A stretch of 54,818 nt of DNA, taken from a virus (taxonomy: Duplodnaviria; Caudoviricetes). The stretch covers positions 1-54,818 of IMG/VR virus record IMGVR_UViG_3300017783_000027, one strand, 5' to 3'. A program made the translations under genes and the position numbers. Under the pieces are notes generated by a model. That model did no database searches, was not told where the DNA came from, and saw nothing but the letters and a program-made list of their open reading frames with translations. Shown piece after piece: positions 1-54,818 of the stretch (positions are counted from its first letter, which is position 1; every line of letters begins with the position of its first letter).

Positions 1-1
1 A

Positions 2-277
2 AAAATACAAGTTGATTTAGAAGTTGATACATCAATCAAAGACCTTGGTGTAAATCCATATGCTAAATTAATTCATATGGCAAGAGCTGTTGACGCTTGG
101 AGAATATTTCCAAGATTGTTCTTAACAGTTTACATTATATTATTATACAAATGCGTAATATGGTATATGAACTTATCTGCTCCGACTATGGAACAGAGTG
201 GCTTAATCAGTATCGTTGTTGGTGCTGGCGCAGCCTGGTTTGGTCTATACACAGGAACAAGTAAGAGTAAGAAATAA
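2..277 (+). CDS. 5'-truncated small membrane protein (two hydrophobic helices; holin-like possible)
   Basis: Frame is open from base 2 (KIQVDLEVDTSIKDLG...) into the track ORF 77..277; hydrophobic segments FPRLFLTVYIILLY and GLISIVVGAGAAWFGLY; basic C-terminus. Confidence 0.6.
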   Translation, partial: KIQVDLEVDTSIKDLGVNPYAKLIHMARAVDAWRIFPRLFLTVYIILLYKCVIWYMNLSAPTMEQSGLISIVVGAGAAWFGLYTGTSKSKK

Positions 278-405
278 TGGATTGGGTAACAGCAGACTTA
301 TTACAAGTAATCAACGAGACAAGTTGGTTTGATGGCATAGGCACAATAGTTGTTTTACTAGGTGCATACGCTATTTACAAATACATCAACAAAAGGTTTA
401 AATAG
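277..405 (+). CDS. 42-aa single-pass membrane microprotein
   Basis: ATG overlaps the upstream stop (TAATG); MDWVTADLLQVINETSWFDGIGTIVVLLGAYAIYKYINKRFK; fills the gap to the next gene exactly. Confidence 0.65.
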   Translation: MDWVTADLLQVINETSWFDGIGTIVVLLGAYAIYKYINKRFK

Positions 406-407
406 AA

Positions 408-3832: not shown

Positions 3833-4371
3833 TGAGATATTTTGCAGACTTACCAAAAATAAATTACGATATAGAAGCCAACGGCAGTTTAAAGTTGGTG
3901 CCTGATATATTCAGACGTGTCAAAATCAGAAGTAAGATTAAAGACAATGTTATGTTGTTTGACAAGTATGATATTGATTCAGGTGAGAAACCAGAAGATG
4001 TAGCATTCAAAGTATATGGTGACCCAGCATTTCATTGGGTTATATTGTTGACAAATAATATTGTAAACAGATATTACGAATGGCCGTTAAGTGAGTATGA
4101 TTTTCAAAAATATGTTGAAGATAAGTACACTAATCCAGGTGCAATACATCACTACGAAGTAACACAATCTAGTGGAAAGCAAAAGGGAGACGGTCCTGGT
4201 GACTACCAGACACACAAAATTGAGGTTAATAGTGATTATGTTGGTGCAGAGGCAGTATCTAATATTGAATATGAACGAAGAATACAAGATAATATAAGAC
4301 AGATACAGATATTAAGTCCAGAGTATTTACAGACTTTCATCAACGAGTATAAAGCATTGATTAGAAGATAA
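3832..4371 (+). CDS. gp53: baseplate wedge protein gp53
   Basis: MRYF..LP.I.Y, GEKPEDVAFKVYGD..FHWVILLTN, EWPL, IHHYE. Confidence 0.9.
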   Translation: MRYFADLPKINYDIEANGSLKLVPDIFRRVKIRSKIKDNVMLFDKYDIDSGEKPEDVAFKVYGDPAFHWVILLTNNIVNRYYEWPLSEYDFQKYVEDKYTNPGAIHHYEVTQSSGKQKGDGPGDYQTHKIEVNSDYVGAEAVSNIEYERRIQDNIRQIQILSPEYLQTFINEYKALIRR

Positions 4372-4375
4372 TGAC

Positions 4376-5839
4376 ATGGCAACAGATATATTAAAAAAAG
4401 CAGGTGAATATAACCTAGAACAAGTAGAATTAATATCATATAGAAACCACGGCGAAGAGGGCGGTGTTATTACTATGGATATTAAACCGATTACCATTCA
4501 GGTAGAGTTACTAGAAGATTTATCACAACATTTCCTATCTGGCGCAATAACCGTATATGATACGCAGGATGTACGCACAGTATTACCAATCACAGGACTA
4601 GAACGACTCAAACTTAAATTCAATACACCTGGTATGCCTGGTTATTCATTTAATGAAACAGATGGTGTACCGTTTCAAGTGTATAAGATAGAACAAGTAA
4701 AGATTGACGATAGTTATAATCGTGGTCAATTCTATAAGATTCACTTTACATCTCCTGAAGCATACTATAACGACATTACAAGAGTAAGTCAAGCGTTTGA
4801 AGGTGTTATTGAGGACGCAGTTGATAAGTTATTAAGACAAAAGAATTTTCTCAACAGTCAAAAACATCTATATTTTGAGCCAACTAAATCAAATACAAAG
4901 AACGTAATACCAAACCTTAAACCAGTAGAGGTGATTAACTTCCTTGCTAAACAGGCAAGGTCAAGTCTTTACGCAAATACAGGTTACATGTTCTATGAGA
5001 CGGCGCAAGGGTTTAACTTTAGAAGTTTAGAGTCTATGCTAGCAATAGGTGGTGCAAAGGCAAGACCAAGTAGATGGTCATTTTACCACCAATTGAACAA
5101 CGTACAACCTGATAATGTGGTCATGCAGATGAACAGTGTAAAACGATATGAGATACACAGTCCGGTCAATATGGATGAAACAATTAATTCAGGTGCATTT
5201 GCCAGTCGCCTGATTACAGTAGACCATTTTAACAAGAAGGTGGCAACGAATGATTTTGATTACAGCGCCAACTTCCATAAGAATTTTCATACTGAACACA
5301 CTAACGGAGACAAATCAGATAATAAAATGATATTGCCATTACATAAATTTGGTGATACAAACAAGGATTTGTCACAAATGCCAATGGCCAAGTTAATGGT
5401 GCATAGTGAGACAGCAAAGAAACATGATAGTTATGATGATATACCACAAACAGACCTGGTACAATCACAGAATAGTCAACGAATTATGTTAATGCAAAAC
5501 AATATAGTCATGTTGGTCAATGGTATTACCTTGTTAAGATGTGGTGACATTGTAGATTTCAATATGCCATTGATGAGACCAGTATTAGACAAGAAAGAAG
5601 AGACCAATCCATATCATGCAGGACGATACCTAATTAAATCTATTAAACATACAATATCAGTAGAGGCAGGTAAACATGACATGGTATTACATTGTATGAA
5701 AGATTCAGTAGCGTCACCATTACCAGTAGAGACAAACGCAGTACAGATTACACCAAAGGATAGGTCAACGGCCAGTACAGTTTACCAAGAAGACGAGGCA
5801 ATCTTAGCCCGCCTTTCAGATAGTATGGGAAGTACATAA
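4376..5839 (+). CDS. putative baseplate hub protein (gp27-like)
   Basis: Between gp53 and gp5; LPITGLE, FYETAQGFNFRSLE, GRYLIKSIKH motifs typical of contractile-tail hub proteins. Confidence 0.65.
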   Translation: MATDILKKAGEYNLEQVELISYRNHGEEGGVITMDIKPITIQVELLEDLSQHFLSGAITVYDTQDVRTVLPITGLERLKLKFNTPGMPGYSFNETDGVPFQVYKIEQVKIDDSYNRGQFYKIHFTSPEAYYNDITRVSQAFEGVIEDAVDKLLRQKNFLNSQKHLYFEPTKSNTKNVIPNLKPVEVINFLAKQARSSLYANTGYMFYETAQGFNFRSLESMLAIGGAKARPSRWSFYHQLNNVQPDNVVMQMNSVKRYEIHSPVNMDETINSGAFASRLITVDHFNKKVATNDFDYSANFHKNFHTEHTNGDKSDNKMILPLHKFGDTNKDLSQMPMAKLMVHSETAKKHDSYDDIPQTDLVQSQNSQRIMLMQNNIVMLVNGITLLRCGDIVDFNMPLMRPVLDKKEETNPYHAGRYLIKSIKHTISVEAGKHDMVLHCMKDSVASPLPVETNAVQITPKDRSTASTVYQEDEAILARLSDSMGST

Positions 5840-5925
5840 TGTTTAAGTTCCGATTTCCGACAGTAGCTGGCAACCTCTGTACATATGAGATAAGTAATAA
5901 TGAAACAAGTAAAGGTTAAGCAGGT

Positions 5926-6234
5926 ATGATAGGTAAAGTATATGAGATAGCCAACGAGATACTACGAGGTAGGACTGATAAGAAAAAACAATCAGCATCC
6001 TCTCAAAGGTCAGAGGCCAAGTTTCTACGAGACTTATCACACAATACACCGAATAGTGACATGTTTGATGAGTTAGGTAAGTATGAGTGGATGGACTATG
6101 AGGGTCTTAAACGAGATTCTAGTGGAATGCGAAATGCTTTAAATAGATACGGAAATAGAAGTTTACGCACTTGGAACGTATTGATACCATTGAGTATTTT
6201 AATTGTAGGATTGGGAGTTTTACTTTGCGTATGA
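5926..6234 (+). CDS. hypothetical protein with C-terminal hydrophobic anchor
   Basis: 102-aa ORF fills the hub-gp5 gap; no recognisable motif. Confidence 0.45.
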   Translation: MIGKVYEIANEILRGRTDKKKQSASSQRSEAKFLRDLSHNTPNSDMFDELGKYEWMDYEGLKRDSSGMRNALNRYGNRSLRTWNVLIPLSILIVGLGVLLCV

Positions 6235-6303
6235 AATATTTAAATAGTCGTTTATTGCGTATAGCAAGCGTATTAAAAGGCGACATATATGAAGGAAAAA
6301 TAA

Positions 6304-7380
6304 ATGGCTGACGAGAATTTTTTAGGACGGAATGGGTTTTATACCTTTACTGGCGTTGTTGAGGACAGGCAAGACCCTCAATATGCAGGCCGTTTACGTG
6401 TTCGTTGTATAGGAATTCATACAGATGACAAGCAGACATTACCAACGGCCGACTTGCCGTGGGCCAGTATCATAATGCCTGTTACATCTAGTGGGATATC
6501 AGGTCTTGGTGAGTCTCCGTCTTTCCTTGTAGAGGGAACGTGGTGTTTTGGGTACTTTAGAGACGGCATATCGCAACAGGAACCAGTGGTATTGGGCAGT
6601 TTACCTGGCCGGCCATCAGAGTTATCTTCTCCTTCTAAAGGTTTCTATGACCCTAACGGTGTTTATCCCAAGTATAAGGATGAGACGGATGTAAATAGGT
6701 TGGCCGTTAATGGTGTGGATGAACATCTTTCTTTGACATTACGTAAGCTGGCACGTACTACAGGTATTGCTACGGCAGACTTTAATAGTAAGACTAATGC
6801 TGATTCGTCTGTAATGGAGGCAAGTGATTCGGATACATGGGACCAGCCAGAGATACCATACAATGCAACTTACCCTTACAATCATGTATATGAGACCGAA
6901 TCAGGCCATATCAGAGAATATGACGACACGAAGGACAATGAACGTATCTATGAGGCCCACATGTCAGGCACCTCATATGAAATAGACAAAGACGGTAATA
7001 AGGTAGATATAATAAAGGGCAGCCATTATACCATAGTTTCAACCAATAGTCAAGCACAAATACGAGGCAATTCGGATATCACACTAGATGGCAGGCACAA
7101 GTTATATATTAACAAGAGTGGTCAATTAAATAACCATTATGATATACAAGTAGGACCTAATGCAAGTATTAATATACAAGTTGACACAGGCGATATAAAC
7201 CTAGTCACAGTTGCTGGTAAGGTAAATGTCAACGCAGGTGGTGACTATAACCTCAAGGTTGGTGGTAATATGACTGTAGATGTAGAAGGCCATTACTTAG
7301 AGAACGTCAGCGAGACAAGAACACAGAATACTACCAAAGAGTCAGTCATAAGAGGTAGAAGAATAGACCTAAACCCTTAA
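6304..7380 (+). CDS. gp5: baseplate central spike gp5 (OB-fold plus short beta-helix, no lysozyme domain)
   Basis: FTGVVEDRQDP..GRLRVRC, LPTADLPWA, YPYNHVYETESGH..EYDDT, C-terminal RIDLN. Confidence 0.9.
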   Translation: MADENFLGRNGFYTFTGVVEDRQDPQYAGRLRVRCIGIHTDDKQTLPTADLPWASIIMPVTSSGISGLGESPSFLVEGTWCFGYFRDGISQQEPVVLGSLPGRPSELSSPSKGFYDPNGVYPKYKDETDVNRLAVNGVDEHLSLTLRKLARTTGIATADFNSKTNADSSVMEASDSDTWDQPEIPYNATYPYNHVYETESGHIREYDDTKDNERIYEAHMSGTSYEIDKDGNKVDIIKGSHYTIVSTNSQAQIRGNSDITLDGRHKLYINKSGQLNNHYDIQVGPNASINIQVDTGDINLVTVAGKVNVNAGGDYNLKVGGNMTVDVEGHYLENVSETRTQNTTKESVIRGRRIDLNP

Positions 7381-7563
7381 GCTGGCCACAAGGCCACCAT
7401 GGAAAAGCGCTATAAGTTTTTGGCTTTGATTCGCTAAACTATAAATGCAATAACGTCCCTTAAACTTATATTTAACTGGATAAATATTATCACAGGAATT
7501 CCTGGAGGCCAAAATAACTCGTCCAGGATTTGATACAACAATATGAAGAGGAATGATTAAAAC

Positions 7564-11132: not shown

Positions 11133-11762
11133 ATGGAAAAATTTTATGAGGAAGTCCCTTTATCAATTGACATTGACCGACTTGGTAAATCATACTTTGA
11201 TTTTAAACATCATTTAGGTTTTAGAACAGACGACAAACGCAATATAGATTTCAATGCTATTTGTGTTAACAGAATACCTGGTGACGAATCATCTATACAA
11301 GGTGGTAACGTTAGAGGTTTGTATTGGACAATGCCTGATACAACCAATGTAGAAGAACAACGATTAGAACCTGTTAAAGAACATTTATATACTGAAATAT
11401 GTCCTGAATTTAAAGGCACATATATTGAAGAAGTATATAACATCATCACAAAAAAATTTAAATTAGGAAGAGTACGTCTTTTGATGAAACCACCAAGGTC
11501 TTGTTTATCTTGGCATAGGGATCCTGAAATGAGATTACATATTCCTATTATAACTAATAAAGGTTGTATCATGGTAATAGAAGATACAGCGTTTCATATG
11601 CCAGCAAATGGTAATGGTTATATTACAGATAACACAAAGTATCATAACTTCTTTAACGGCTCTGAATTTGATAGAGTTCATTTAGTCGCCACAGTATTAG
11701 AACACAATTGTGGCATGGATTGGCAAGATGAAGTGAAATACGAGTGTTGTAAACTTTGTTGA
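11133..11762 (+). CDS. aspartyl/asparaginyl beta-hydroxylase-like 2OG-Fe(II) oxygenase
   Basis: GRVRLL, SWHRD..RLHIPIITN, DNTKYHNFFNGS..DRVHLV. Confidence 0.85.
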   Translation: MEKFYEEVPLSIDIDRLGKSYFDFKHHLGFRTDDKRNIDFNAICVNRIPGDESSIQGGNVRGLYWTMPDTTNVEEQRLEPVKEHLYTEICPEFKGTYIEEVYNIITKKFKLGRVRLLMKPPRSCLSWHRDPEMRLHIPIITNKGCIMVIEDTAFHMPANGNGYITDNTKYHNFFNGSEFDRVHLVATVLEHNCGMDWQDEVKYECCKLC

Positions 11763-14360: not shown

Positions 14361-14389
14361 ACTATACACTAGATAAATAGAGAAAGCAA
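14361..14389 (-). promoter_or_regulatory. sigma70-like early promoter TTGCTT-17-TATAGT
   Basis: Near-consensus boxes, 17-nt spacer, A/T tracts upstream. Confidence 0.7.
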
Positions 14390-14416
14390 GCGAAAAAGGC
14401 GCTTTTTTCAAAAAAA

Positions 14417-14599
14417 ATGCTCAATAAAATCAACGTTTTATCAATTATTTTAATTTTTTTTCTTTCCGGCTGCTCTGGAAAAGTCAAAAATTGCGAATTT
14501 TCGCCGGATTTAGAGCGAATCGGCGAATCAGCGTTAGAAAATAGAGAAAATTTGTCGGAAACTGAATTGAGAGCAGGAAAAATGAGTTGTAATTTCTAA
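14417..14599 (+). CDS. putative small lipoprotein
   Basis: Basic N-terminus, hydrophobic core, LSGC lipobox; no clear RBS and atypical codon usage. Confidence 0.5.
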   Translation: MLNKINVLSIILIFFLSGCSGKVKNCEFSPDLERIGESALENRENLSETELRAGKMSCNF

Positions 14600-14607
14600 T
14601 ATAAATA
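14600..14607 (+). promoter_or_regulatory. T4-type late promoter TATAAATA
   Basis: Exact consensus upstream of ORF 14632 and PAAR. Confidence 0.8.
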
Positions 14608-14631
14608 GTATCATTAACAGAAAGTGAATAT

Positions 14632-14841: not shown

Positions 14842-14844
14842 TAA

Positions 14845-15150: not shown

Positions 15151-15173
15151 TTAGAAACTGCTTCGTAAAACCT

Positions 15174-15615: not shown

Positions 15616-17469
15616 ATGGCACAACATAAACTTAAAATATCAGATTTAGATTTTGACCAAATTAAAATCAATCTAAAAACTTTTTTACAAAGTCAAACAG
15701 AATTCCAAGATTACGATTTTGAAGGTTCAGGCCTTTCTATCTTATTAGATGTATTATCTTACAACACACACTATCTTTCATACATTGCTAACATGTCAAC
15801 TAATGAGTTGTACTTAGACAGTGCTGATATTAGAAAGAATATTGTTTCTTTAGCAAAAATGTTAGGTTATACTCCTAGTTCGCCAAGAGCACCTAAATCA
15901 AACATTGATATTACAATTAATAACGCTACAGGCTCAAGTATAACTATGGGCAAAGGTTCGGTGTTTACTACTTCTCTTTCTGGAGAAACTTATCAATATA
16001 TAACTAACGAAGATATTACAATTACACCTGTTGATGGTGTTTACAAGTTTTCAGATGTAACTGTTTATGAAGGCTCACTTGTTACTTTTAAATATACAGT
16101 TGATAGTACAGACGTTGACCAAAAATTTATTGTTCCAAGTCCTAATGCAGATACGTCAACTTTAAAGGTATCTGTACAAAATTCAAGCACAGATACAACA
16201 CTTACAACATTCTCTTTAGCAGGTGGTTACAATTCTGTATCAAATACTTCTAACGTTTACTTTATACAAGAGGGTGACGCAGGAAGATATGAAATTTATT
16301 TTGGTGACGGTGTTACAGGTAAAAAATTACAAGATGGTAATGTTGTAATCATGCAATATATCGTAACTAACAAAACTGCTTCAAATGGTGCTTCTGCTTT
16401 CTCACTACAAGGTGACATTGGTGGTTTTACAGATGTTACAATTTTTACTAACTCGGTTTCACAAGGTGGTTCTGAGGCAGAGACAAAAGATTCAATTAAG
16501 TTTAATGCGCCTTTGCATTATGCAGCTCAAGACAGAGCCGTAACAACAACAGACTATGAAACGATTGTTAAGTCAATTTATCCTAATGCATTATCAGTAA
16601 GTGCTTGGGGTGGTGAAGATGATGAAACACCACAATATGGTATTGTTAAAATTGCTATTAAAGCAGCTTCAGGTTCAACTTTGACTAATCAAACTAAATT
16701 AGATATTGTTAGTTTGTTAAAACCTTATAATGTTGCTTCAGTTAGACCAGAAATTGTGGATCCAGAAACTACTTCTGTTCTAGTAACTACAGTTGCTAAA
16801 TTTGATTCAAAAAATACTGCTAAAACTAAAGATACGTTAAAATCAGATATTATTACGACTATTCAAAAATATAACACAGATGAGTTACAAAAATTTGATG
16901 GTGTGTTTAGATTTTCTAAATTATCAAAATTAATTGATAATACAGACGATTCAATTTTATCAAACTCTACAAATGTTAAAATAAGAAAGACATTAACACC
17001 AACTATAAATTCATCTACGAAATATGACATATATTTCAGAAATGCATTATATAATCCTCATGCAGGTCATAATATGGCTTCTGGTGGTATCTTATCGTCA
17101 ACAGGTTTTAAAATTGACGGAAATGACAATGAACAATTTTTAGATGATGACGGCAATGGTAACGTGAGACGTTATTTCTTGGTTTCAGGTATTAAGACAT
17201 ATGCTTCATCAGCACAAGGTACAATTAATTATGCTACAGGTCAAATCACACTAAACTCTTTAAATATTTCTTCTATATCAAATATTAGAGGTGCAGCTTC
17301 TACGGTAATTGAATTAACTGTAACACCTGATTCAAGAGACATTGTTCCTGTTAGAGACCAGATTATTGAGATTGATACTAACGTATTAAATGTTTCTGCT
17401 GAACCTGACACATTTGTTGGTGGTTCTGCTGAAGCAGGTGTTGGTTATACAACAACAAGTAATTACTAA
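15616..17469 (+). CDS. gp6: baseplate wedge protein gp6
   Basis: LDFDQIK.NLK, FQDYDFEGS, YNTHY, FGDG, QDRAVTTTDY, WGGE. Confidence 0.93.
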   Translation: MAQHKLKISDLDFDQIKINLKTFLQSQTEFQDYDFEGSGLSILLDVLSYNTHYLSYIANMSTNELYLDSADIRKNIVSLAKMLGYTPSSPRAPKSNIDITINNATGSSITMGKGSVFTTSLSGETYQYITNEDITITPVDGVYKFSDVTVYEGSLVTFKYTVDSTDVDQKFIVPSPNADTSTLKVSVQNSSTDTTLTTFSLAGGYNSVSNTSNVYFIQEGDAGRYEIYFGDGVTGKKLQDGNVVIMQYIVTNKTASNGASAFSLQGDIGGFTDVTIFTNSVSQGGSEAETKDSIKFNAPLHYAAQDRAVTTTDYETIVKSIYPNALSVSAWGGEDDETPQYGIVKIAIKAASGSTLTNQTKLDIVSLLKPYNVASVRPEIVDPETTSVLVTTVAKFDSKNTAKTKDTLKSDIITTIQKYNTDELQKFDGVFRFSKLSKLIDNTDDSILSNSTNVKIRKTLTPTINSSTKYDIYFRNALYNPHAGHNMASGGILSSTGFKIDGNDNEQFLDDDGNGNVRRYFLVSGIKTYASSAQGTINYATGQITLNSLNISSISNIRGAASTVIELTVTPDSRDIVPVRDQIIEIDTNVLNVSAEPDTFVGGSAEAGVGYTTTSNY

Positions 17470-24537: not shown

Positions 24538-27500
24538 ATGCCGAGTCCAACTGATTTTAACCTCTCACCATACTTTGACGATTACGCAGAATCAAAAAAG
24601 TTCCATAGAGTTCTTTTTAGACCCGCTTTCGCAGTACAGGCTAGAGAGTTAACACAATCACAAACAATTCTACAAAACCAAGTAGAGAAAGTATCTGACC
24701 ACCTTTTCAAAAAAGGTGCAATGGTTATACCTGGAGAAATTGGGTACGACTTAAATTACTATGCAGTCAAACTAACTTCTTACACAGGCACATCAACTTT
24801 ATCAAATTTTAAAGATATAGTTCTTACAGGTGGTACTTCTGGTGTAACTGCTAAAGTCGGTAATACATCTATTACAGACGGTACGGATCCTGATACACTA
24901 TTCGTAAAATACACAAACTCTGGTACAACTAATACAGCACAAGCATTTACAGACGGAGAAACTATTACAGGTTCAGCAACTATTGACGGTGTTGTAACTT
25001 CTTTAACAGCAATAGTTAATACGACAGCAACTGGTTCGGCCGCTTTTGTTGCAGCTGGTACTTACTACATTAATGGTTTTCATGTCAATGTTGCAGAGCA
25101 AACAATTCTATTAGACAAATACACAAACACACCATCATACAGAGTTGGTTTAACAATTTCAGAATCTTTTGTTACTCAAAATGATGACGGTACACTAAAC
25201 GATAACGCAGCTGGTTCATCTAACGTAAATGCTCCAGGTGCTCACAGATTTAAAATTGATTTAACTTTATCTAAACTTACAGTTGGTTCTTCAGCAGACG
25301 CAAACTTTGTTGAATTATTAAGATTGCAAAAAGGTATTATTCAAAACCAAGTTAGAACAACAGAGTATGCAGTATTAGAAGATACTTTAGCAAGAAGAAC
25401 ATTTGATGAATCAGGTGACTATTCTGTTAGAGATTTTGATATTGATATTAGAGAACATTTACAAACAGGTAATAATAGAGGTATCTATACAAGTGCAAAC
25501 AGTGGTTTAGAATCTAAACTTGCAGTTGGTTTAGGACCTGGTAAAGCATATGTTAAAGGTTATGAAATTGAAACAATTGGTACTACTTTTGTTGAAGTAA
25601 ACAAAGCGAGAAGTTTTGAAACACAAAATAACTTTATTACAAAATTTGATGTAGGTAACTTTGTTAATGTCACTAACGTTTTTGGAACACCAGATATTGG
25701 TTTCGTAACTGGTGACGTAGAAGCATTTAAAAAGATTAATCTGTACAATACTCTATCAGCAGCTAGAGGAACAGAAAACAATGGTAGTTTATCTAGTTTA
25801 AATACAATTGGTCGTGCAAAGTCTAAAGGGTTTGAATATGTAACAGGTACACCTAGTGCATTTACTTTTTCAAGTGCCTCTTTAACTAGTGCAATCTACA
25901 GACACTACATGTTTGATATTAACATGTTTACACACCTAAACTTACAAACTGGTACAGCATTTACAGATGGCGAAGTAGTAACAGGTGGTACAAGTGGTGC
26001 AAGTGCGACATATGAAAGTATTTCAAACGAAGAAAGTAAATCAATTTCAGGTATTACAGTTGCAAATCCAGGTGTTGTAACGGCAACAGCACACAAATTT
26101 AAAGAAGGACAACAAGTTACTATTTCAGGTGTAACAGGTTTTGGTCTTGATTCAGTTTCACAAGACTCTTCAGCACAAGTATTTACTGTTAGAAATCCTG
26201 GCACAAACACATTTGAATTATATGGTGCAGACGGAACAACTGCTCAAAACGTAACAGCATACACTTCTGGTGGTACTGTAGAACATGGTTTAGCAATCGT
26301 TTCAAATGTACAAGGCACATTCGTGGCCGGAGAAACAATCACAGGCGGGACTTCAGGTAATACTGCCGTAATTCAAAATGACAGATTAGGTCAAAAAGGT
26401 GCAACAACTTTTGATTTTGCAAATGTTAAACACCTTGGTATGGCAGGAACACCAACATATACCTCAGACGTTTCTCGTAGTGCAACGTACGGAGAAAGTT
26501 TACAGATTTCAGGTTCTATTTCAGTTGCCTCTGGTGGCACAGCAGTTACAGGTTTCGGTACAAGATTTAATACTGAATTAAAAGTAGGTGATGAAATTAC
26601 ATTTACTACAGACGCTGGTGCTTCAGTAACAAGAATTATAGAATCCATTTCAAGCGATACTACTTTAGAATTTACAACAGTTCTTGGTGGTTCAGACGTA
26701 TCAACAAAAACTATTGCGACTAGAAATAGAGGTAAATTACAAGATAGTAATAAAAACGTTTCTATCTTCCCATTACCACACGCAACAATCAAAACACTAA
26801 AGACGGCGGCTAATTCATCTTTAACCGATACAAACTTTACAGTTAGAAGACACTTTGCAGTTACACTATCAAGTGGTTCGGCAACAATCACTGCTGGTAC
26901 TAACGAGGTCTTTGGTTCATTAGCTGAGGGAGATTATTCAGTATCTATTATGGATATTGCTTCTGCTTCATCTGGTGCAACTGGTGATGTAATGAGTTTG
27001 ACAGGTAACAATGCAAACAGTAATCCCATATTCACACTTGCAGGTTCTCCTACAGGTAAAACTTTAACGTTAGACTTTGGTACTGCTTATGCAAATGCTA
27101 AGATTAAAATTCTTGCTACTGTAACTAGAAGTGTTGCAGATAGTAAAACAAAAACACTTAATAGTAATTCAACTGTACAAATAACTTCACAGTCAATAAT
27201 TCAATCCGGTACAATTGGGTTAGCAAAAGCTGATGTTTATGCTTTAAAGAGTGTTAAGATGGCCGCTGACTTTAGTACAAATGCAATATCAGGCGATACT
27301 GATATTACAGACAGATTTATTTTAGATACAGGTCAAAGAGATAACTACTATGACATTGGTAGAATTAAATTAAAAACTGGTGAATTAGCACCAACAGGTA
27401 GATTACTTGTTACCTTTGATTTCTTTTCACACGGTTCAGGAGATTACTTTGATGTAGACTCTTATTCAGGTGTTGTAGATTACGAAGACATTCCAACTTA

Positions 27501-30500
27501 TCTTTCTGATACTTCTGGTGACAGTTTTGAATTAAGAGATTGTTTAGACTTTAGACCAAGAGTTGATGACGCAAGTACAATTAGTTCAGGTGGTCAAGAC
27601 AGAAGTTTTGATGGCGCTGGTGCTTCTACAGTAGATGTAATTAAATTTGGTGGTAATGTTACTACAGATTTTGAATACTACTTACCAAGAATTGATAAAA
27701 TCTTTTTAGATAAAGAGGGTTCATTTAAAGTAATTGAGGGTGCTTCTTCTGAAATACCTCAATCGCCTAAACAATTAGACGGTGCAATGCATTTATATAC
27801 ATTGTACATTCCTGCTTATACACTAACTACAGACGATATTGATATTAAAACAGTAGATAACAAACGTTATACTATGAGAGATATTGGTAGATTAGAAAAA
27901 CGTATTGAGACAGTTGAATACTACACACAACTTTCTTTATTAGAAACACAGACACAACAATTACAAATACAAGACGCAGATGGTTTTGATAGATTTAAAA
28001 ATGGATTTATCGTAGATAACTTTACTGGTCATGGTATTGGTGACGTAAGTAATTTAGATTACAAATGTTCTATGGACATGGCAGTAGGTGAAGTAAGACC
28101 TACGTTTAAGGAAGATTCAGTACAACTAATTGAATCAGACGAAGATGGCACAGTTATTACAAGTGCAGATAGAACAGCTGCAGGTTACCAAAAAACTGGT
28201 GACTGTATTACATTACCATACACAGAATCAACATTAGTTGACCAACCTTACGCTAGTAAATTTATTAACGTAAACCCATTCAACGTATTTACATGGGTTG
28301 GTTCAATAGAATTATCTCCTCCAGGAGACGAATGGAAAGAAACAGAAAGAGCACCAGAATTAGTTATAAATGAACAAGGTGCCTTTGACACTATGGTTGC
28401 AAACTTAGGAAATCCAAATCTTCAATCAATTGAAGTTGGTACAGTTTGGAACGAGTGGCAAGATATGTGGACTGGAAGACCTACTGAACAAACTACTAAT
28501 ATTGGTGGTAGAGTAAGAGAACATGCATTTGGTGTACCAAACATTTTTGGTAGAGGCCGAAGAGTATTACAAAGACAACAAATTACAACTACACAACAAG
28601 TTAATCAAACTAGAACAGGTGTTAGAAGTACAATTGTTCCACAAGTTGTTAGAGAATCATTAGGTGATAAAATTATCAACGTTGCATTTGTTCCATTTGT
28701 AAGAAGTAGAACAATCACATTCAACGGTACAAGATTTAAACCTAATACAAGATTATATCCATACTTTGATAATATTGATGTATCAACATACGTTACACCA
28801 GAGGGTGGAACATTAGGTGGTAATATTGTTGCAGACGCTAATGGTGCAATCAACGGAACATTTACTATACCTGACCCAACTGTTGACGCAAATCCAAGAT
28901 GGCGAACAGGTACAAGAGTATTCAGATTAACAAGTTCATCTACTAACGATAGAAACTCGGACATTGCTACTGCTGGTGAAGCAGACTATACAGCAAGAGG
29001 TACATTAGAAACAGTACAAGAGAGTATTGTATCAACAAGAGAGCCTAGAGTTGTTAGAGAAAGTGTTACAGAAAATAGACAGATTACAAGAACATCAACA
29101 AGAGAAACAAACGTACAAGTTGGTTGGTGGGATCCTTTGGCACAAACATTCTTAATTGATGACCCAGGTGGTGTTTTCTTATCTTCAATAGATTTATATT
29201 TCCAATCTAAAGACGCTAACATTCCTGTTACTGTTCAAATTAGAGAAGTTAAGAATGGTTATCCGTCAACTACTATTTTACCATTTGGTGAAGTAACATT
29301 AAATCCTAGTGCAGTAAACACAAGTGCTGATAGTTCAGTTGCTACAACGTTTAACTTCCCTAGTCCGATTTACATACAAGAAAATGTAGAATATTCATTC
29401 GTAGTATTAGCAAATACAAACGAGTACAATGCTTTCGTATCAAGAATTGGTGAAACACAATTAGGTTCAGATAGAACAATCTCGGCACAACCTTATGCCG
29501 GTGTATTATTCAAATCACAAAACGGTTCAACATGGACTGCTGAACAAAATGAAGATATGAAATTCAAACTAAAAAGGTGTTCGTTTACAACTGGTACAAA
29601 CGGAACACTAACGGTTGTAAACGATACACTACCGGCTAGAACGTTAAAAAATAATGCATTAAGAACAACAAATAGTTCAGGTGTAATTAGAGTTTCACAT
29701 CCTAATCACGGTATGCATGGTTCAAATAACAATGTGACTATCGCTGGTGTGCCAACAGGTACATACAATGGTATTGCTCACAGTGATATTAACGGAACAT
29801 ACAACTCAATTTCAAATATTACTTTAGATAGTTACGAGATTACAACAACTGGTACAGCAACAGCAACAGGTGATGTTGGTGGTGCAGATGTCACAGCAAC
29901 TCAAAATAGATTGTATGATACTTTGAATTTAAATATTCAAACTATGACTGTTCCAGGAACAGGATTAACTTATAACATGAGGCCAACTACAGGTGCTTCA
30001 GTTCATGGTAGTGAAACAGAGTTTAGTTTAACGGCTGCAAATAATTCAGTTTCAGTATCAGCGAATGATAATATTTACTTTACAGCACCACAACTGGTCG
30101 CTTCTACTGCCAATGAAACAAATGAAATGGCAGGTAGTAAGTCATTATTTGTAAATGCAGTATTATCAACAACTAGTGAAAAATTATCTCCAGTTATTGA
30201 TTTACAAAGATGTAGTGCAATTACAGTACAAAATAGAATTAATAGTCCAACAACAGGCAATACACCAAACTTTGTTGATGACACAGCTTCGTCTGGTACA
30301 TCAAGTGCGGCTGTTTACTTAACTAGACCGATTGTATTAGAAAATCCTTCAACAGCATTAGAAGTTAGATTAACTCAAAATGTTAGAAGTGTTGCAAGTG
30401 TACAATTGTTCTATAGAAATTCGTCTGCTGAAGAATCAAGAGATATTAATGAATTAAGTTGGACACCATTTAATGTAAATGGCGAAGAAGATATTTTAAT

Positions 30501-37746: not shown

Positions 37747-39260
37747 TTTCTAAGCACCTTACCATTTATTACTAATATATCTAGGTCTGTTTTTTTGAAC
37801 GTTTTAAATGCCTGTTGTGGTGTTTCAACAATAGGTTCTCTACAATTAAAACTAGTGTTCAATAACATTGGTATACCTGTCACTTTATAAAACTCATTGA
37901 TTAAGTCATAGAAATCAGGATTGAATTTTTTATTGACTGTTTGTATTCTTGCAGTATTATCCAAGTGTGTAACACCAGGAACCTTATCAGTTTTTACTTT
38001 ACAAATCCTAGACATATATGGACTAGGTTGATTTGTGTCAAAGTATTCTTTATAATGTTCTTCTAATACAGCAGGTGCAAATGGTCTAAAATCTTCTCTC
38101 TTTTTAATTGTATGATTGATTACATCTTTGATATTAGGATTACGTGGGTCTGCTAAAATACTTCTATTACCTAAGGCACGATTACCACTTTCTGACTTAC
38201 CATTGTACCAACCAACAATCTTGCCATCAGCAATAGATTGTGCTATATCTGTTAGGTCAACATTCTCATCTGATAGTTTATACGGCCACTCTTTACCAGC
38301 AAATACATTTGTTTTGTGTCGGTTACCATTAATTGTATAGTCAGCGTGTTGATATGTACCCAGCGCCTGTCCTTCATCACCTATCGCAGGAGGAACGTAC
38401 ACATTTTGGTATTGTTTAGTAAACTCTTCATTCATATAACCATTATATGCAACACCACCAGATAGACATATGTTCTCACAAGTCTTTAGTGGATATACAT
38501 GTTCTTTAATTTTGTCAAGTGTAAATTTCTGTAGTGTAAACGCCAAGTCTTCTTTACCATACTTCTCAATATTCAATTCTTTATGCATATGATTTGACTT
38601 CTCACGTCTCTTATCATCTGCTATCATTTCAAATGCATTGTAATAATATTCGCTATATTTACCATATGCAACTAAACCCATAAGTTTACTTGCACCTAAC
38701 GGACCGAAACCTGTTAGTTTAGACATTTGATTCCATATCCAACCAAGTGGTAACTCTTTAGATAAGTCTGTTATATTCTCATCTTTATCTACAAAGATAC
38801 ATCTATACTTAGCACCAATTCCGTCAATGGCAAGTATATCTGACTTGTCAAAACCAGAGTTTATGAAAGCATAAGTGGCATGAGATTGGTGGTGGTCAAT
38901 ATAGTATATCTCATCTTTATAGTATCTGTCAAACAACTTTTTAGGTTCATAGTCAAGTATCTCTTTATGAGCTACAAGCATACCTTTAAACAACGAATCT
39001 TTAAGGTGTCTGATACCACCATTAGTGTAGGAAAACGCCAAAATTTTATTCGGAAATTTCTCAAAATATTCTTCAACAAAATTAAAGTTTAATCTGTAAT
39101 CATCAACGTTTAATTTATCGCCCTCATTATGATGAGCATATGCGTCAACATGATAAGGTATGTTGTGTTTAAATCTAGTATATCTTTCCATTTGTTTATG
39201 AAAGACACCATCATATGTATTTTGGTCATGTAGATTTAGTGCAACGCTATATATTTTCAT
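37743..39260 (-). CDS. carbamoyltransferase (NodU/CmcH/TobZ family)
   Basis: ERYTRFKH, HHQSHA, AIDGIG, KLMGL, SGGVAYN, GDEG, RALGNRS, KREDFRPFAP, LLNTSFN. Confidence 0.93.
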   Translation of the reverse strand: MKIYSVALNLHDQNTYDGVFHKQMERYTRFKHNIPYHVDAYAHHNEGDKLNVDDYRLNFNFVEEYFEKFPNKILAFSYTNGGIRHLKDSLFKGMLVAHKEILDYEPKKLFDRYYKDEIYYIDHHQSHATYAFINSGFDKSDILAIDGIGAKYRCIFVDKDENITDLSKELPLGWIWNQMSKLTGFGPLGASKLMGLVAYGKYSEYYYNAFEMIADDKRREKSNHMHKELNIEKYGKEDLAFTLQKFTLDKIKEHVYPLKTCENICLSGGVAYNGYMNEEFTKQYQNVYVPPAIGDEGQALGTYQHADYTINGNRHKTNVFAGKEWPYKLSDENVDLTDIAQSIADGKIVGWYNGKSESGNRALGNRSILADPRNPNIKDVINHTIKKREDFRPFAPAVLEEHYKEYFDTNQPSPYMSRICKVKTDKVPGVTHLDNTARIQTVNKKFNPDFYDLINEFYKVTGIPMLLNTSFNCREPIVETPQQAFKTFKKTDLDILVINGKVLRK

Positions 39261-40876: not shown

Positions 40877-41679
40877 ACTAAATCAAATGCCCATTTTCTC
40901 TCATAACACCAAAAACATTTATGACATTCTCTGGTGTAGTTATCTGTATCTTTTGCTGTACCTGTACAAGAACGTGTTATTTCAAATAAATCCATAATGT
41001 TATTTTGTTTGTAAATATCTGCTACAAACTTTTTATCTACATTGAGAAATGGTTTGTAACGGTTGTATTTTAATCTAACTCTATTTGTATAATGATTACG
41101 TCTATCTTCTCCTTTATGACCAAAAGTTTCTAGTGCCTCTGGTGGTGGATTACCAGTAAGACCATCTAACATCATAGGTTTATGAAACTTCTTAACCATA
41201 TGTTCACATATTTCATGTATTAAGATTATCTTAGTCATTTGCTTAATACTTAAATTTTTATATTCATCTTTATCTTTTGATAATTTAGGGTCATCTGATA
41301 CACCATCAATAGCCTTTTGTGCTTCAGGCCAATGTTTTTCGTCTCTATCATTGAAATCAAAAGTTTCAATGTCATGTAGATTTGCATGTGGAAATTTATT
41401 TTGAATATACTTAACTATCTTATCAGCTGCGATAGCGTCTTTAAGAGCATTGTTACCAATATCTCTTGCAGTAAAAGGATAGTAATGTAAATTTGGATAA
41501 TGTTTACAAGAAAGATATAATGCAGAGGCAGAATCAGCACCACCTGAAAGTGATACAATTATGTTTTCTGGAAGGCCTTCTGAATTAAGAACGAGGCCTT
41601 TTTTAGATATTGGCGAGGCGTTCATCATCTGTTCCATGTCATAGAATGGTATAGTAATATTATTATATGTTACGTTCAT
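40870..41679 (-). CDS. QueC-like N-type ATP pyrophosphatase
   Basis: SLSGGADS PP-loop, PF..DK, TRSC...CHKCFWCYER zinc site; start moved to MNVTY. Confidence 0.8.
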   Translation of the reverse strand: MNVTYNNITIPFYDMEQMMNASPISKKGLVLNSEGLPENIIVSLSGGADSASALYLSCKHYPNLHYYPFTARDIGNNALKDAIAADKIVKYIQNKFPHANLHDIETFDFNDRDEKHWPEAQKAIDGVSDDPKLSKDKDEYKNLSIKQMTKIILIHEICEHMVKKFHKPMMLDGLTGNPPPEALETFGHKGEDRRNHYTNRVRLKYNRYKPFLNVDKKFVADIYKQNNIMDLFEITRSCTGTAKDTDNYTRECHKCFWCYERKWAFDLVW

Positions 41680-41702
41680 TTCACTTCTCAATTATGTACT
41701 AC

Positions 41703-41721
41703 TATTTATACGTCATAAATA
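41703..41721. promoter_or_regulatory. back-to-back late promoters (TATAAATA on minus 41703-41710; CATAAATA on plus 41714-41721)
   Basis: Boxes face the modification operon and the divergent oxygenase. Confidence 0.8.
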
Positions 41722-41726
41722 TACGT

Positions 41727-42512
41727 ATGTTTAAGAATGAAGCGAATAGGTTTTTTAATGCTAGTGATGATAATTACCAAGACTTTGGTTGGCATGAGTT
41801 TACATTAGAAGAGTTAGGTTTACCACCAGCAGAAGATATATTAAAAGGTGTCAAGGCAATTGAGAAAGAAGTAGGTCTAATTGGTTGGCGAACAAAGGAT
41901 AGTACAAACGAAAACTATAAAGGATTTGGTATTACATATAACCCTACATTTCATAAAGACGAAAATCCACACCATCAAGTATTTGGCTCAAGATTATCTA
42001 CTCAAACATTTGCACAAGACGACCAAGAACATGAACAGCTTGAAAATACATATTATGATACATTTGGTTTTAGAAAGAGAACACCAGAGGTTGACAAACA
42101 TCTAGGTTTTTTATTAGATAGATTTGCCTTTCATGTTTCACGTAGTAGGGTTGGTTATGTATTTGGTTATGGTTTAGAACCAAATCGCAAAGGTTGGCAT
42201 ATTGATGAACCACCACAAATGCTATTAAGAGTTAATATACCTTTACAAACTAGTGATGAATATGTTATGCAGTGGAAAGATAACACTTACAAACTAGAAG
42301 TGGGAAAAGCATATCTCTGGAATACAAGAATTAAACATAGACCAACTATCACACGAAAAGTAGAGACAAAAGAACCTAGAATTAACTTGGTAATTGGTCT
42401 AACACCTTGGTTAACCTACGACCCCGAAATGGATAAATATAGTAAAAATGAGTTATTTGGAAAATCAATCAAAGAGATTGTTGAGAATAAATTATTTGTA
42501 AAAGGAGATTAA
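41727..42512 (+). CDS. aspartyl/asparaginyl beta-hydroxylase-like 2OG-Fe(II) oxygenase
   Basis: RSRV, GWHIDE, RVNIPLQT, LEVGKAYLWNT..KHR, RINLV; start moved to MFKNEA. Confidence 0.8.
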   Translation: MFKNEANRFFNASDDNYQDFGWHEFTLEELGLPPAEDILKGVKAIEKEVGLIGWRTKDSTNENYKGFGITYNPTFHKDENPHHQVFGSRLSTQTFAQDDQEHEQLENTYYDTFGFRKRTPEVDKHLGFLLDRFAFHVSRSRVGYVFGYGLEPNRKGWHIDEPPQMLLRVNIPLQTSDEYVMQWKDNTYKLEVGKAYLWNTRIKHRPTITRKVETKEPRINLVIGLTPWLTYDPEMDKYSKNELFGKSIKEIVENKLFVKGD

Positions 42513-51850: not shown

Positions 51851-52726
51851 ATGAGTAAAAGAATTGACATGAGTAACGACACGGCTATTATTGAATATGC
51901 CAATGGTGAAGTAAGTCATCACAATCCTAAATTTAAAATGGAACATTTTGTAGGCGGTTCTATGCTTACGCCATTTAAAAGGATGCACCAATACCTAGTT
52001 GAATTAAGAACAAAACAAGATTCGTTTTTACATTGTGAATGGGAATTGAAGAAAAAAGAAATTGAATTACTAATTGAAGAGAAGAAATATAAAAGAGCCA
52101 AAGATTCAAAAGTAGATGAATTAGAAGCACAATATATTGAATTAGATTTATTGAATATTCGTAAAGACTGTAAACAGTATAGAGAGAGAATGAAACAAGC
52201 TCTCAGAGAAAAAGATGATACTTTAGAGTTAATACGAGAATTGAATGAAAGTCCAGAAGGTAAACTTGAAGACGGTACACCTATTATGGATGTATTTGGT
52301 AATAAAGAATTAGAAGAAAAGTTAGAAAAAGAGTATTGGACTTTGAGAATGGCGAAACAATGTGCTACAGAAATGTTAGCATATGGTAAAATTGGTACAG
52401 GAAACATTGACGCAATCGCTATGTTACCACCACCACAACAAAAAGAAATATTAAAGATTGCTACTGATTATACAGTAAGATTTGATATTAACATGAATCA
52501 ATTGACAAATCAAGCAGTAAGTGATTTACGTATTGGTTATGTTAATGAACAGAGACAAAAAGCATTGAAGAGTATTGGTATTTCACAAGGTGTTGAAGAC
52601 CCTAATCTACTTAAAAATATAGAAGAAAACCACCAACCTGACAATAATACTCTTATAAATAATAAGTATAACAATGAAGAACAATCGCCGTCACAAAATA
52701 CAGGCGAATGGACAACAGAAAAATAG
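51851..52726 (+). CDS. coiled-coil protein
   Basis: F....FV.....TP; long E/K-rich heptads; E.EYW..R.AKQ.A..G.IG.GN. Confidence 0.7.
   Translation: MSKRIDMSNDTAIIEYANGEVSHHNPKFKMEHFVGGSMLTPFKRMHQYLVELRTKQDSFLHCEWELKKKEIELLIEEKKYKRAKDSKVDELEAQYIELDLLNIRKDCKQYRERMKQALREKDDTLELIRELNESPEGKLEDGTPIMDVFGNKELEEKLEKEYWTLRMAKQCATEMLAYGKIGTGNIDAIAMLPPPQQKEILKIATDYTVRFDINMNQLTNQAVSDLRIGYVNEQRQKALKSIGISQGVEDPNLLKNIEENHQPDNNTLINNKYNNEEQSPSQNTGEWTTEK
52654..52661 (+). promoter_or_regulatory. T4-type late promoter TATAAATA
   Basis: Exact consensus inside the 3' end of the upstream gene. Confidence 0.6.
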
Positions 52727-52735
52727 GAATAGCAA

Positions 52736-53476
52736 ATGGCAAATCAATACGTTTTATTTAAAAAGAATTCTATAGAACAAAAACCAGGCTGGATTACAGA
52801 TTATCACAATTACTGTGGTTATGGCGTTGGTGTTATCACAGACGAAATGCAAGATTTAAGAGTTGAGTTGGACCATATACATGCAGAAATTATTCCTTAT
52901 TCAACTGCTAAAGGTGTTTTGTTTGCAGACTCATATGATGGAACAATTTCAATCAAACCAGGTACTACAGTATCAGATGAATTTCCTCAAATAGTAGGTT
53001 CTGGTGAAGCTGCGAAAACAACATATACATTGGATAGTGATGACACAGCACAATCAGTTTTATTCAATAAGGTATTATTCAAAAGAATTATTAGAGACAG
53101 ATACAATCAACATTGGTTGGCATTATCTCAAGCAAGTGCATTAGAGAAACAATCTTGGTCTGTTCAACAAGCAGAAGCAGAGGCGTGGACAGCAGATAAT
53201 ACTGTTTCAACACCGACACTTTCTACTTTAGCAACAGCAAGAGGTTTAACAGTATCAGCATTAGTATCAAAAATTAATGCGAAAGTTACAGCATACAACA
53301 GTTCAGTAGCAACTTTACTAGGTGAACAAAAAGACCTAGAGGATGAAGTTGACGCATGTACAACAATTGCAGAGTTACATAGATGGAGACATTTAAAAGG
53401 TATCTCGGCCGTTTCTACAGCACAAGCAACAGATGAGCCAGGTCTCGCTGACGCACCATTAATAATTAGTTTTTAA
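52736..53476 (+). CDS. putative fibre-assembly/chaperone-like protein
   Basis: E..SW..Q..EA.A....TP.L..LA..RG....LV.KI pattern. Confidence 0.6.
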   Translation: MANQYVLFKKNSIEQKPGWITDYHNYCGYGVGVITDEMQDLRVELDHIHAEIIPYSTAKGVLFADSYDGTISIKPGTTVSDEFPQIVGSGEAAKTTYTLDSDDTAQSVLFNKVLFKRIIRDRYNQHWLALSQASALEKQSWSVQQAEAEAWTADNTVSTPTLSTLATARGLTVSALVSKINAKVTAYNSSVATLLGEQKDLEDEVDACTTIAELHRWRHLKGISAVSTAQATDEPGLADAPLIISF

Positions 53477-53519
53477 TTAATCGCCATCTTTGATGGCTTG
53501 AAATGATGAGATTTATATT

Positions 53520-54818
53520 ATGTTTAGTGTACCACTAAATCCCAAATTAACTCCGGAACAGTTTGATACTTTTCTGGAGTTCCTCAAACGAAATAAAAAA
53601 TATATCTATGATGTTTATTATACATCAAGGATGGCACCCTTTGAACAAGACGCAATGGGTGATGTATTTCCAGAGTTAGAACAAAACTTAATTTCAGAAA
53701 ACGCATATATCATTCCTAAGCAGACAGGTATTCCTTTGTCTGCCACATTTAATAATATAGAAGTACCACCAACAGACGCAAATTTAGACTTATTCATAAA
53801 AAATTTTAAGAATCTGTATGACAAGGGTATTCGTATCGTAACTATACCACACACCCTTTGGATGCTGTCTGGTAAGTTCCAACGTGCATATCCAGACGTA
53901 CTTGTAAAGAATACTATTCTCCGAAATACACAAAGACTTAATGAAATAGTTAAACAAGTAGAGGCCGGTTTTGATTATATTAATTTAGACCGAGACTTAA
54001 TGCGTAATGAAGACTTTTTAAAATCATTAACAAAGGTTAAAGAACACTGTAAGACTAAACTTGGTGTAGATGTAAAGATTAGTTTACTTGCAAACGAGGG
54101 TTGTTGGGGCAATTGTCCTGTACAAGATGAACATTTTTTATATAACAACACAAGAAAAACGGGTTTAGAACCAACATATTTCAAAACTAAAATTAGTTAC
54201 TTCTCATGTCCTAAATGGGAAGAACAAGACCCAGCATATCAGTGGCGTATCGCAAATTTTCCACCTTGGAAAGAAGAGTGGGATAGATTACTTACTTACA
54301 TTGATGTAATTAAAATGCATGGTAGAGAAAGTTCTCAAAGACTATTTGAGAGTATGAATATCATTGATAGATTTAGAGAAGGAAAGGAAATATTATTTCC
54401 AGAGTTTGAAGAGTTTATTAATAAACAAAAGTTTGCTGAAAAAAGAATTAAAGTATGGCGTGAGACTATTAAGAATTGCCAGTTTAATTGTTGGGACTGT
54501 AATGTATGTGATAAAATAGTAGAAAAAAATAATAGTGCAGAGTACATTAAGGTAGTAAAACAAGCTATAACAAATAGTGGTAGAGGTTTTAGTGGGATAA
54601 CTGATACTACAAAGGCAATAGGTGGCCTTACTTCTGATAAAGTTAAACACCTAGTTAACAATATTTGTAGAAATACACCAGACCCTAGTTACTTAGAAGT
54701 TGGTGTTTTTCAAGGCGCTATATTTACAAGTGCATTAGAAAGAAATAATATCATTGCTTGTGCTGTTGACAATTGGTCAAATACACAAAATGTACCAGCA
54801 GATGATAAGGTAAAAATT
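53520..54818 (+). CDS. 3'-truncated U32-like (TrhP/RlhA/UbiU-type) Fe-S protein fused to a class I SAM methyltransferase
   Basis: Open from ATG 53520 to the window end (433 codons, absent from the track). GFDYINLDRDL, LLANEGCWGNC, IKMHGRE, CQFNCWDCNVC, then YLEVGVFQGA..AVDNW. Confidence 0.7.
   Translation, partial: MFSVPLNPKLTPEQFDTFLEFLKRNKKYIYDVYYTSRMAPFEQDAMGDVFPELEQNLISENAYIIPKQTGIPLSATFNNIEVPPTDANLDLFIKNFKNLYDKGIRIVTIPHTLWMLSGKFQRAYPDVLVKNTILRNTQRLNEIVKQVEAGFDYINLDRDLMRNEDFLKSLTKVKEHCKTKLGVDVKISLLANEGCWGNCPVQDEHFLYNNTRKTGLEPTYFKTKISYFSCPKWEEQDPAYQWRIANFPPWKEEWDRLLTYIDVIKMHGRESSQRLFESMNIIDRFREGKEILFPEFEEFINKQKFAEKRIKVWRETIKNCQFNCWDCNVCDKIVEKNNSAEYIKVVKQAITNSGRGFSGITDTTKAIGGLTSDKVKHLVNNICRNTPDPSYLEVGVFQGAIFTSALERNNIIACAVDNWSNTQNVPADDKVKI

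Follow-up and report, generated by a model that had tools for sequence, protein, structure and literature searches.

GATC and GATGC are nearly absent from a predicted pelagimyophage fragment, except where a G precedes them

Avoidance of restriction sites (palindromes) is a classical feature of phages, and GATC is nearly absent from some Staphylococcus and T7-type phages. Methylases specific for GGATCC, GGATC or GGATG can shield the overlapping sites of GATC or GCATC cutters, and phages are also able to hypermodify their DNA, either with cassettes of a C5 methyltransferase and a TET/JBP enzyme or with 7-deazaguanine inserted by DpdA. Here, we analyzed word avoidance in a 54,818-base stretch of viral DNA (IMG/VR record IMGVR_UViG_3300017783_000027, taken whole and referred to below as the window), which probably derives from a phage of SAR11, a bacterial clade more abundant in the ocean than any other, and in which every remaining GATC and GATGC carries a G immediately upstream. 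In passages of a study of SAR11 podoviruses, depletion of GANTC was read as a trace of restriction in a clade without obvious restriction-modification (PMC9516812, Microbiome 2022). Our literature search found no report of GATC or GATGC avoidance, or of a flank exemption, in pelagimyophages, although the supplementary motif tables of PMC8919816 and PMC9516812 may bear on it.

An automated count found four GATC in the window (starting at 11520, 16759, 24886 and 29131), every one of them within GGATCC, which agrees with the original prediction, made by reading the sequence by eye, of four GATC as GGATCC at 11519, 16758, 24885 and 29130. That reading had given two GATGC/GCATC, both on one strand; the automated count gives three (two GATGC and one GCATC), the copy at 51981 having been missed. 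All three are indeed preceded by G, i.e., read GGATGC, but they use both strands (5995 on the minus strand, 51981 and 53860 on the plus strand). We compared these counts with 300 shuffles in which synonymous codons were permuted and every protein was kept. The shuffled sequences contained 117.8 +/- 8.0 GATC (minimum 100) and 78.1 +/- 6.6 GATGC (minimum 56), against the 4 and 3 observed, so that the depletion stands under a codon-preserving null. A zero-order model predicts ~176 GATC, a maximal-order Markov model predicts 136 GATC (z -19) and 55 GATGC (z -8.5), and the Markov and codon-shuffle nulls together rule out chance or composition as the cause. The codon habits described in the original prediction are also borne out, with Asp before GC written GAC 57 times and GAT never, and Ala before TC written GCA at 1 of 49 positions vs 559 of 1061 (53%) elsewhere. 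The depletion affects both orientations and survives the codon-preserving null, and is therefore selective and acts on DNA, which fits the restriction avoidance first proposed.

The surviving copies follow a rule in the base that precedes them. In the same shuffles, GGATCC is expected 2.3 times and GGATGC 5.4 times (4 and 3 observed), and when GATGC is sorted by preceding base, G is found 3 times vs 5.2 expected, and A, C or T 0 times vs 73. The G-flanked forms are therefore present in the window at neutral numbers, and all other GATC and GATGC have been removed. Since GGATCC makes up 1.9% of shuffled GATC, the chance that four of four would be GGATCC is P ~1e-7, and the corresponding chance for three of three GGATGC is P ~3e-4. 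The exception noted in the original prediction is a real rule and not a product of chance.

The relatives of the window show the same pattern. Its gp6 baseplate protein (15616-17469) shares 73.9% identity with gp6 of Pelagibacter phage Mosig and ~53% with the gp6 proteins of Melnitz, a phage of Methylophilales, and of Pelagibacter phage HTVC008M, with cyanophages next at 36-39%, and PHROGs and Pfam scans identified a T4-type baseplate and tail-fibre module. Together, these gp6 identities and the T4-type module identify the window, at the level of sequence, as a fragment (34.7% G+C; CheckV completeness ~39%) of a marine T4-like pelagimyophage of SAR11 bacteria related to Mosig. In Mosig itself (141 kb), GATC occurs 19 times vs ~305-381 expected, and all 19 copies are GGATCC. 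The full genome of HTVC008M contains 83 GATC, of which 55 carry GGATC on a single strand and 28 on both, with no copy lacking it altogether; ~104 one-sided and ~6 two-sided sites are expected (scaled from a 50-kb shuffle). Two-sided GGATCC is thus over-represented in both phages (28 vs ~6 in HTVC008M; 19 vs 6.8 in Mosig), and one-sided sites reach about half of their expectation in HTVC008M (55 vs ~104) and do not occur in Mosig. We read this two-sided excess and one-sided deficit as protection that is additive strand by strand, together with the rescue of sites by flank mutation. The depletion of asymmetric words is likewise present in Mosig, HTVC008M and IMG/VR relatives; for example, GATGC with a preceding G occurs 20 times vs 16.8 expected in Mosig and 5 vs 6.0 in the first 50 kb of HTVC008M, where the counts for HGATGC are 13 vs 152.5 and 3 vs 72, respectively.

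We then sorted 84 related sequences by the context of their GATC, taking 80 loci from IMG/VR together with the window, Mosig and 50-kb pieces of HTVC008M and Melnitz. GATC is confined to GGATCC, or missing altogether, in 49 of them, every site contains GGATC in 25, and other contexts are present in 10. In a tree of gp6, the one-flank type makes up a clade (20 rows, 100% support), the unconstrained type falls mainly into two basal clades, and clustering of the labels far exceeds that of shuffled ones. Of 76 loci around the DNA polymerase of Mosig-like contigs, 70 are without GATC outside GGATCC. The gp6 site orthologous to the GGATCC at 16758 can be followed codon by codon. Val-Asp-Pro relatives without unflanked GATC read GTG-GAT-CC or GTT-GAC-CC and never GTT-GAT-CC, the clade that tolerates one-sided sites reads AAA-GAT-CC, and unconstrained lineages read GTT-GAT-CC or GTA-GAT-CC. 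The codon pair has two escapes, either destruction of GATC or placement of a G ahead of it, and we take this alternation as direct evidence for protection by the preceding G. Pooled over the sequences without unflanked GATC, in a tally that counts orthologous sites repeatedly, the Asp of Asp-Pro is GAT in 88 cases and GAC in 10 if a G precedes it, compared with 0 and 217, respectively, if A, C or T does.

Twenty-two of the 23 GGATCC in the window and Mosig lie in the frame xxG-GAT-CCx (Asp-Pro). This frame follows from codon usage and not from coding constraint, because GAC could replace GAT at every site and GGACC shows no avoidance (25 vs 37; 79 vs 91); the same two facts dismiss coding constraint, and a clash between avoidances, as reasons for the survivors. 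A search for a longer common motif upstream of GG found none, and its sole signal was the missing GGGATC of HTVC008M (0 among 111 GGATC strands, with ~10 expected).

The flank rule extends beyond words that contain GAT. The depleted words of the window are GATC, GATGC, TCGA, CGCG, CATCG, CAGGG, CGACG, AGTACT, TCTAGA, GTATAC and AGCT, and against the codon shuffle we counted TCGA 4 vs 91, AGCT 69 vs 167, CGCG 0 vs 12, CAGGG 0 vs 22, CGACG 0 vs 22, AGTACT 0 vs 17, TCTAGA 0 vs 15 and GTATAC 1 vs 14. GTATAC, an unrelated palindrome, obeys the G rule in the same way. All 10 copies in Mosig are G-flanked, seven on one strand (9.7 expected) and three on both (1.45 expected), as are all 14 in HTVC008M, and unflanked GTATAC is found 0 times vs 17.7 in Mosig and 0 vs 8.7 per 50 kb in HTVC008M, the flanked copies being as frequent as expected. 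The control word GTTAAC is mostly unflanked, and the sole GTGCAC of Mosig reads GGTGCACC.

Further words were seen to vary across the group. GCAGCA/TGCTGC occurs once in the window vs 24.6 expected from the codon shuffle, whereas GCAGC is normal (51 vs 57), and TCGA occurs twice in HTVC008M vs 215 expected. ACGT is found 0 times in Mosig vs ~252 in codon shuffles, at 147 sites in the window (294 when both strands are counted) and 108 times of 326 in HTVC008M, so that even close relatives differ sharply in the words that they avoid. In Melnitz, which infects a different host clade, GATC occurs 23 times vs 398 with a weak flank gradient, and CCGG occurs 15 times vs 87 expected, with 15 of 15 reading GCCGG on one strand; survival as GCCGG is probably an exemption by a short-context cytosine modification. 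The surviving sites of the window are collected in the table.

Table. Surviving copies of the depleted words in the window, with their positions and contexts
Word	Position	Strand	Context
GGATCC	11519..11524		xxG-GAT-CCx (Arg-Asp-Pro), open reading frame 11133-11762
GGATCC	16758..16763		GTG-GAT-CCA (Val-Asp-Pro), gp6 15616-17469
GGATCC	24885..24890		Thr-Asp-Pro, 2040-residue VrlC-like open reading frame 24538-30660
GGATCC	29130..29135		Trp-Asp-Pro, same VrlC-like open reading frame 24538-30660; WWDPL site likewise GGATCC in Mosig
GCATC	5995..6000	-	GCATCC on the plus strand, i.e., GGATGC on the minus strand
GGATGC	51981..51986	+	AGG-ATG-CAC; removable by synonymous change
GGATGC	53860..53865	+	TGG-ATG-CTG
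GTATAC	37870..37877		sole copy in the window; reads GGTATACC, with a G flank on each strand
CGATGG	15077, 17989, 20529, 23754, 43627, 44117, 50841, 51414 (starts)	+	surviving CGATG
CCATCG	1926, 43523 (starts)		survivors in the other orientation; CGATG/CATCG total n = 10

The DNA of the host shows none of this avoidance. In 75 Pelagibacteraceae loci (1.32 Mb) of SAR11, the ratio of observed to expected is 1.02 for GATC, 1.08 for GATGC and 1.00 for TCGA, and GATC is present at ~3 per kb. Podoviruses of SAR11, which are unrelated to the myophages, share much of the avoidance. HTVC011P has GATC 0 vs 86 and CATCG 0 vs 14, HTVC019P has GATC 0 vs 100 and CATCG 0 vs 20, and both have few or no AGTACT, CTTAAG, TCATGA and CGCG; HTVC010P keeps GATC (131 vs 143). 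GANTC, for its part, occurs once in HTVC011P and six times in HTVC019P. We found no GATC at all, GGATCC included, in 80 HTVC019P-type loci (907 kb) and 80 HTVC011P-type loci (717 kb, reaching down to 68% portal identity), although composition predicts tens of GGATCC in these 160 loci (1.62 Mb), and the flank exemption is thus absent from phages of the same host. Loss of GATC is not an intrinsic trait of T7-like phages, as the cyanobacterial T7-like phage P-SSP7 is normal (131 vs 160). Because many of the avoided words are the same in unrelated podoviruses of SAR11, these comparisons point to nucleases of the host population, rather than to a cause internal to the phage, as the likely selecting agent. 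Since the podoviruses are without GGATCC, the purging agent would act on GGATCC too, while the myophages are immune there.

Candidates for such nucleases were sought in 401 Pelagibacterales genomes. D12 (Dam-family) methyltransferases were above the cut-off in 30 of these, and the host genomes that carry them show no local avoidance of GATC. In three loci (L177, L179 and L183, from genomes G141, G399 and G131), a Dam-family methyltransferase lies in an islet between bipA (or hisG) and groEL. The islets of L179 and L183 add a second, N6_N4 methyltransferase and an open reading frame (ORF) of 455-653 residues without an assigned function, the islet of L177 holds only the Dam-family methyltransferase and a 182-residue ORF, and a further locus (L181) has two adjacent D12 methyltransferases and a 542-residue ORF. 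We see in the bipA-groEL islets candidate restriction-modification cassettes, of which this clade is said to have none. In one Pelagibacterales genome, a 265-residue protein with a conserved D...E-C-K motif adjoins a Dam-family methyltransferase. Its structural model is confident (pLDDT 91.6) and has a PD-(D/E)XK nuclease fold, with Z 9.9 to I-Ssp6803I and Z 5-6 to several restriction enzymes, and its family is present in that 1 of the 401 genomes. Pelagibacterales thus have candidate restriction systems that are rare and diverse.

Among the relatives, the slot after the DNA polymerase varies in gene content. In Melnitz, a C5 methyltransferase, a Tet_JBP dioxygenase and a 427-residue ORF follow directly after the DNA polymerase (4010-7552), and Mosig carries an MT-A70 methyltransferase. 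Among 20 ORFs tested from this slot in Mosig-like contigs of IMG/VR, 11 are MT-A70, three are PD-(D/E)XK nucleases, four are weakly GNAT-like, one is a 2OG oxygenase and one has no recognisable family. The presence of MT-A70 does not track the rule, and copies from one contig without and one contig with unflanked GATC are 84% identical; MT-A70 was rejected as the protecting enzyme. The adenine methyltransferase to which the original prediction looked was not found in the window among the three families searched (D12, N6_N4 and MT-A70), the window being ~39% of the genome. As a deazaguanine-related signal, the window contains only a weak QueC-like match, and deazaguanine or TET systems were rejected as the protection, their genes not having been found in the window, Mosig or HTVC008M.

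The slot of HTVC008M contains a DruA/DUF4338-like protein. DruA (DUF4338) is a component of the Druantia anti-phage system, and genes of this kind occur once in Mosig (14385-15683) and twice in HTVC008M (gp106 and gp122), and were not found in Melnitz, HTVC019P or the window. The phage protein has no solved homologue by sequence. The window also encodes 2OG-Fe(II) oxygenases, a carbamoyltransferase, radical-SAM enzymes and glycosyltransferases, as identified by the PHROGs and Pfam scans. A minus-strand cluster (33549-42512) contains a radical-SAM enzyme, a SPASM protein, two glycosyltransferase-like ORFs, a carbamoyltransferase and the weak QueC-like PP-loop ORF, with an epimerase just upstream; candidate substrates of the cluster are the cell surface, the virion or DNA.

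We favour, tentatively and at somewhat less than an even chance, an explanation that combines restriction pressure from the host with a strand-wise protection specific to the myophages, keyed to the 5' G and probably a DNA modification. Restriction-type nucleases of natural SAR11-like hosts would exert strong, continuing selection on the phage lineage, cutting GATC, GATGC and about ten other short words, which synonymous changes would have removed. In T4-like pelagimyophages, a site with a G before its first G would be refractory on that strand, with two flanks (GGATCC) giving full immunity and one flank giving partial or, for some enzymes, sufficient immunity. Protected sites would drift at neutral frequency and may even arise as escape mutations (GTT-GAT to GTG-GAT). 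We assign the protection to the DNA of the myophages because GGATCC is missing as well from podoviruses that share the host; we take it to be a putative modification that depends on context, lies on or beside a G with G or C after it, and would block cleavage when located at the edge of the target. We infer, then, host nucleases as the selecting agent and DNA modification as the protecting agent. It is possible but doubtful that T4-like SAR11 phages carry a new modification of their DNA, or some other shield acting strand by strand, which is set by a G with G or C after it and makes the adjoining restriction target uncuttable.

Several observations weigh against this explanation. HTVC008M is without D12, N6_N4, MT-A70 and C5 methyltransferases, though 83 of its 83 GATC obey the rule. 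No TGT/DpdA gene was found in the window, Mosig or HTVC008M, nor in Melnitz (PF01702, E <= 0.01), in a search that matched 14 of 14 control genomes, and Tet_JBP was not found in the window, Mosig or HTVC008M. MT-A70 is present in 7 of 15 tested contigs without unflanked GATC vs 4 of 5 with it. Other words have other flank rules. For example, CATCG survives in the window only as CCATCG (10 vs 10.4 expected; other flanks 0 vs 33.9), and in HTVC008M, CTGCAG and CTTAAG survive with G or C flanks, the surviving GGCC (22 vs 80) are flanked by C or T, and GAATTC (0 vs 32) has no exemption. In addition, a G at the other end of GATGC gives no protection, and CAGGG is purged despite containing GG. On the side of the host, podoviruses and myophages may meet different natural host strains, a check for DpnII-type enzymes found that family above the cut-off in 0 of the 401 Pelagibacterales genomes, and SAR11 is described, in passages of two studies, as rarely carrying restriction-modification systems (PMC7029224, PMC9516812).

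The exemption could instead be a property of the nucleases, if SAR11 enzymes cleave H^GATC, HGATGC and HGTATAC and do not cleave with a G at -1 beside the scissile bond. Under this alternative, an enzyme that nicks strand by strand would spare GGATCC fully and only nick one-sided sites. Such enzymes would account for an exemption that is additive by strand and for the tolerance of one-sided sites in one clade, with 55 in HTVC008M and none in Mosig; they would also account for motifs with differing flank rules, since the extended specificity could vary from enzyme to enzyme, and for the failure to find a modification gene among the families searched in the window, Mosig and HTVC008M. Enzymes with not-G or not-C positions exist, e.g., GDGCHC, but we know of none with a G-excluding specificity of this kind, a single excluded base would have to be common to three unrelated motifs, and the podoviruses of the same host have purged GGATCC as well (0 in 160 loci). 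We regard a nuclease property as unlikely. Improbable, in turn, is a methyltransferase of GGATC, GGATCC or GGATG type, from the phage or its previous host, that shields G-flanked GATC and GATGC. The slot after the polymerase does hold methyltransferases (MT-A70 in Mosig and 11 of 20 contigs; C5 in Melnitz), the GCCGG of Melnitz (15 of 15) is the type of exemption that an overlapping modification produces, and a methylated GATCC motif is reported from a genome bin of a marine gammaproteobacterium (PMC8919816). On sequence grounds, however, GGTATAC falls outside any single GGAT-type motif, so that a further specificity would be needed; HTVC008M obeys the rule at every GATC yet is without four methyltransferase families, the presence of MT-A70 is uncorrelated with the rule, and the window (only 39% of the genome) has no methyltransferase among the families searched. 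Of the two mechanisms offered in the original prediction, methylation of overlapping GGAT sites thus fails for the GTATAC exemption, and a nuclease that recognises H-GATC is possible but fits the podovirus purge of GGATCC poorly.

Two further alternatives concern the phage itself. Its own nucleases might shred host DNA at GATC and other words, with the phage genome kept free of them, in which case the flank rule would mirror the specificity of the phage enzyme. Host DNA is indeed full of these words, and the slot after the polymerase is occupied by PD-(D/E)XK genes in some contigs and by MT-A70 in others. We consider self-avoidance very improbable, as unrelated podoviruses share the avoidance of GATC, CATCG, AGTACT, CTTAAG, TCATGA and CGCG, and more than 10 avoided words are too many for phage-borne nucleases. 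Hardly probable at all is a functional motif, in which GGATCC or GGATC would be positively selected and kept while other GATC were purged. The excess of two-sided GGATCC in HTVC008M and Mosig would suit such a motif, but flank mutations that rescue sites explain it equally well, and the positions are not conserved, with GTG-GAT-CC alternating with GTT-GAC-CC among close relatives. Moreover, 22 of 23 sites share one coding frame, and GTATAC and GATGC obey the same flank rule.

If T4-like SAR11 phages do carry a strand-wise shield, their genomes would record its footprint and, along with it, the specificities of a restriction arsenal of SAR11 that is otherwise unseen. SAR11 is described as nearly free of restriction-modification, yet the purges in its phages are very complete, in that 1.6 Mb of podovirus loci contain 0 GATC and Mosig contains 0 ACGT, and would imply a strong nuclease-based defence that current SAR11 host genomes do not show. 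The flank exemption is a second readable signal, and offers a cheap, sequence-only way to detect protection on the side of the phage. The rule also names the sites to probe in cultured HTVC008M and Mosig, i.e., GGATCC, GGATC, GGTATAC and GGATGC.

The window and its relatives share features with each of the known systems. A context-dependent hypermodification with a very short context would protect only overlapping restriction sites, and Melnitz has both a C5 methyltransferase and Tet_JBP; against this likeness, Tet_JBP and TGT/DpdA were not found in the window, Mosig or HTVC008M. Protection by overlapping methylation would leave exactly GGATC(C) and GGATGC uncut, but would leave GGTATAC uncovered, and no matching methyltransferase was found in the window or HTVC008M. 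The GANTC depletion of SAR11 podoviruses (PMC9516812) concerns the same host clade and the same restriction puzzle with a different motif and different phages, and the passages describing it report neither GATC depletion nor a flank rule. There is a likeness to restriction-site avoidance, in that short targets have been removed synonymously, on both strands and far below compositional expectation. This first layer, restriction avoidance, is ordinary, and the second layer, the flank exemption, is unexplained. Unlike classical restriction-site avoidance, the host clade is reported to be poor in restriction-modification and host DNA shows no avoidance, and the purge itself is context-dependent, with G-flanked copies persisting at or above neutral frequency.

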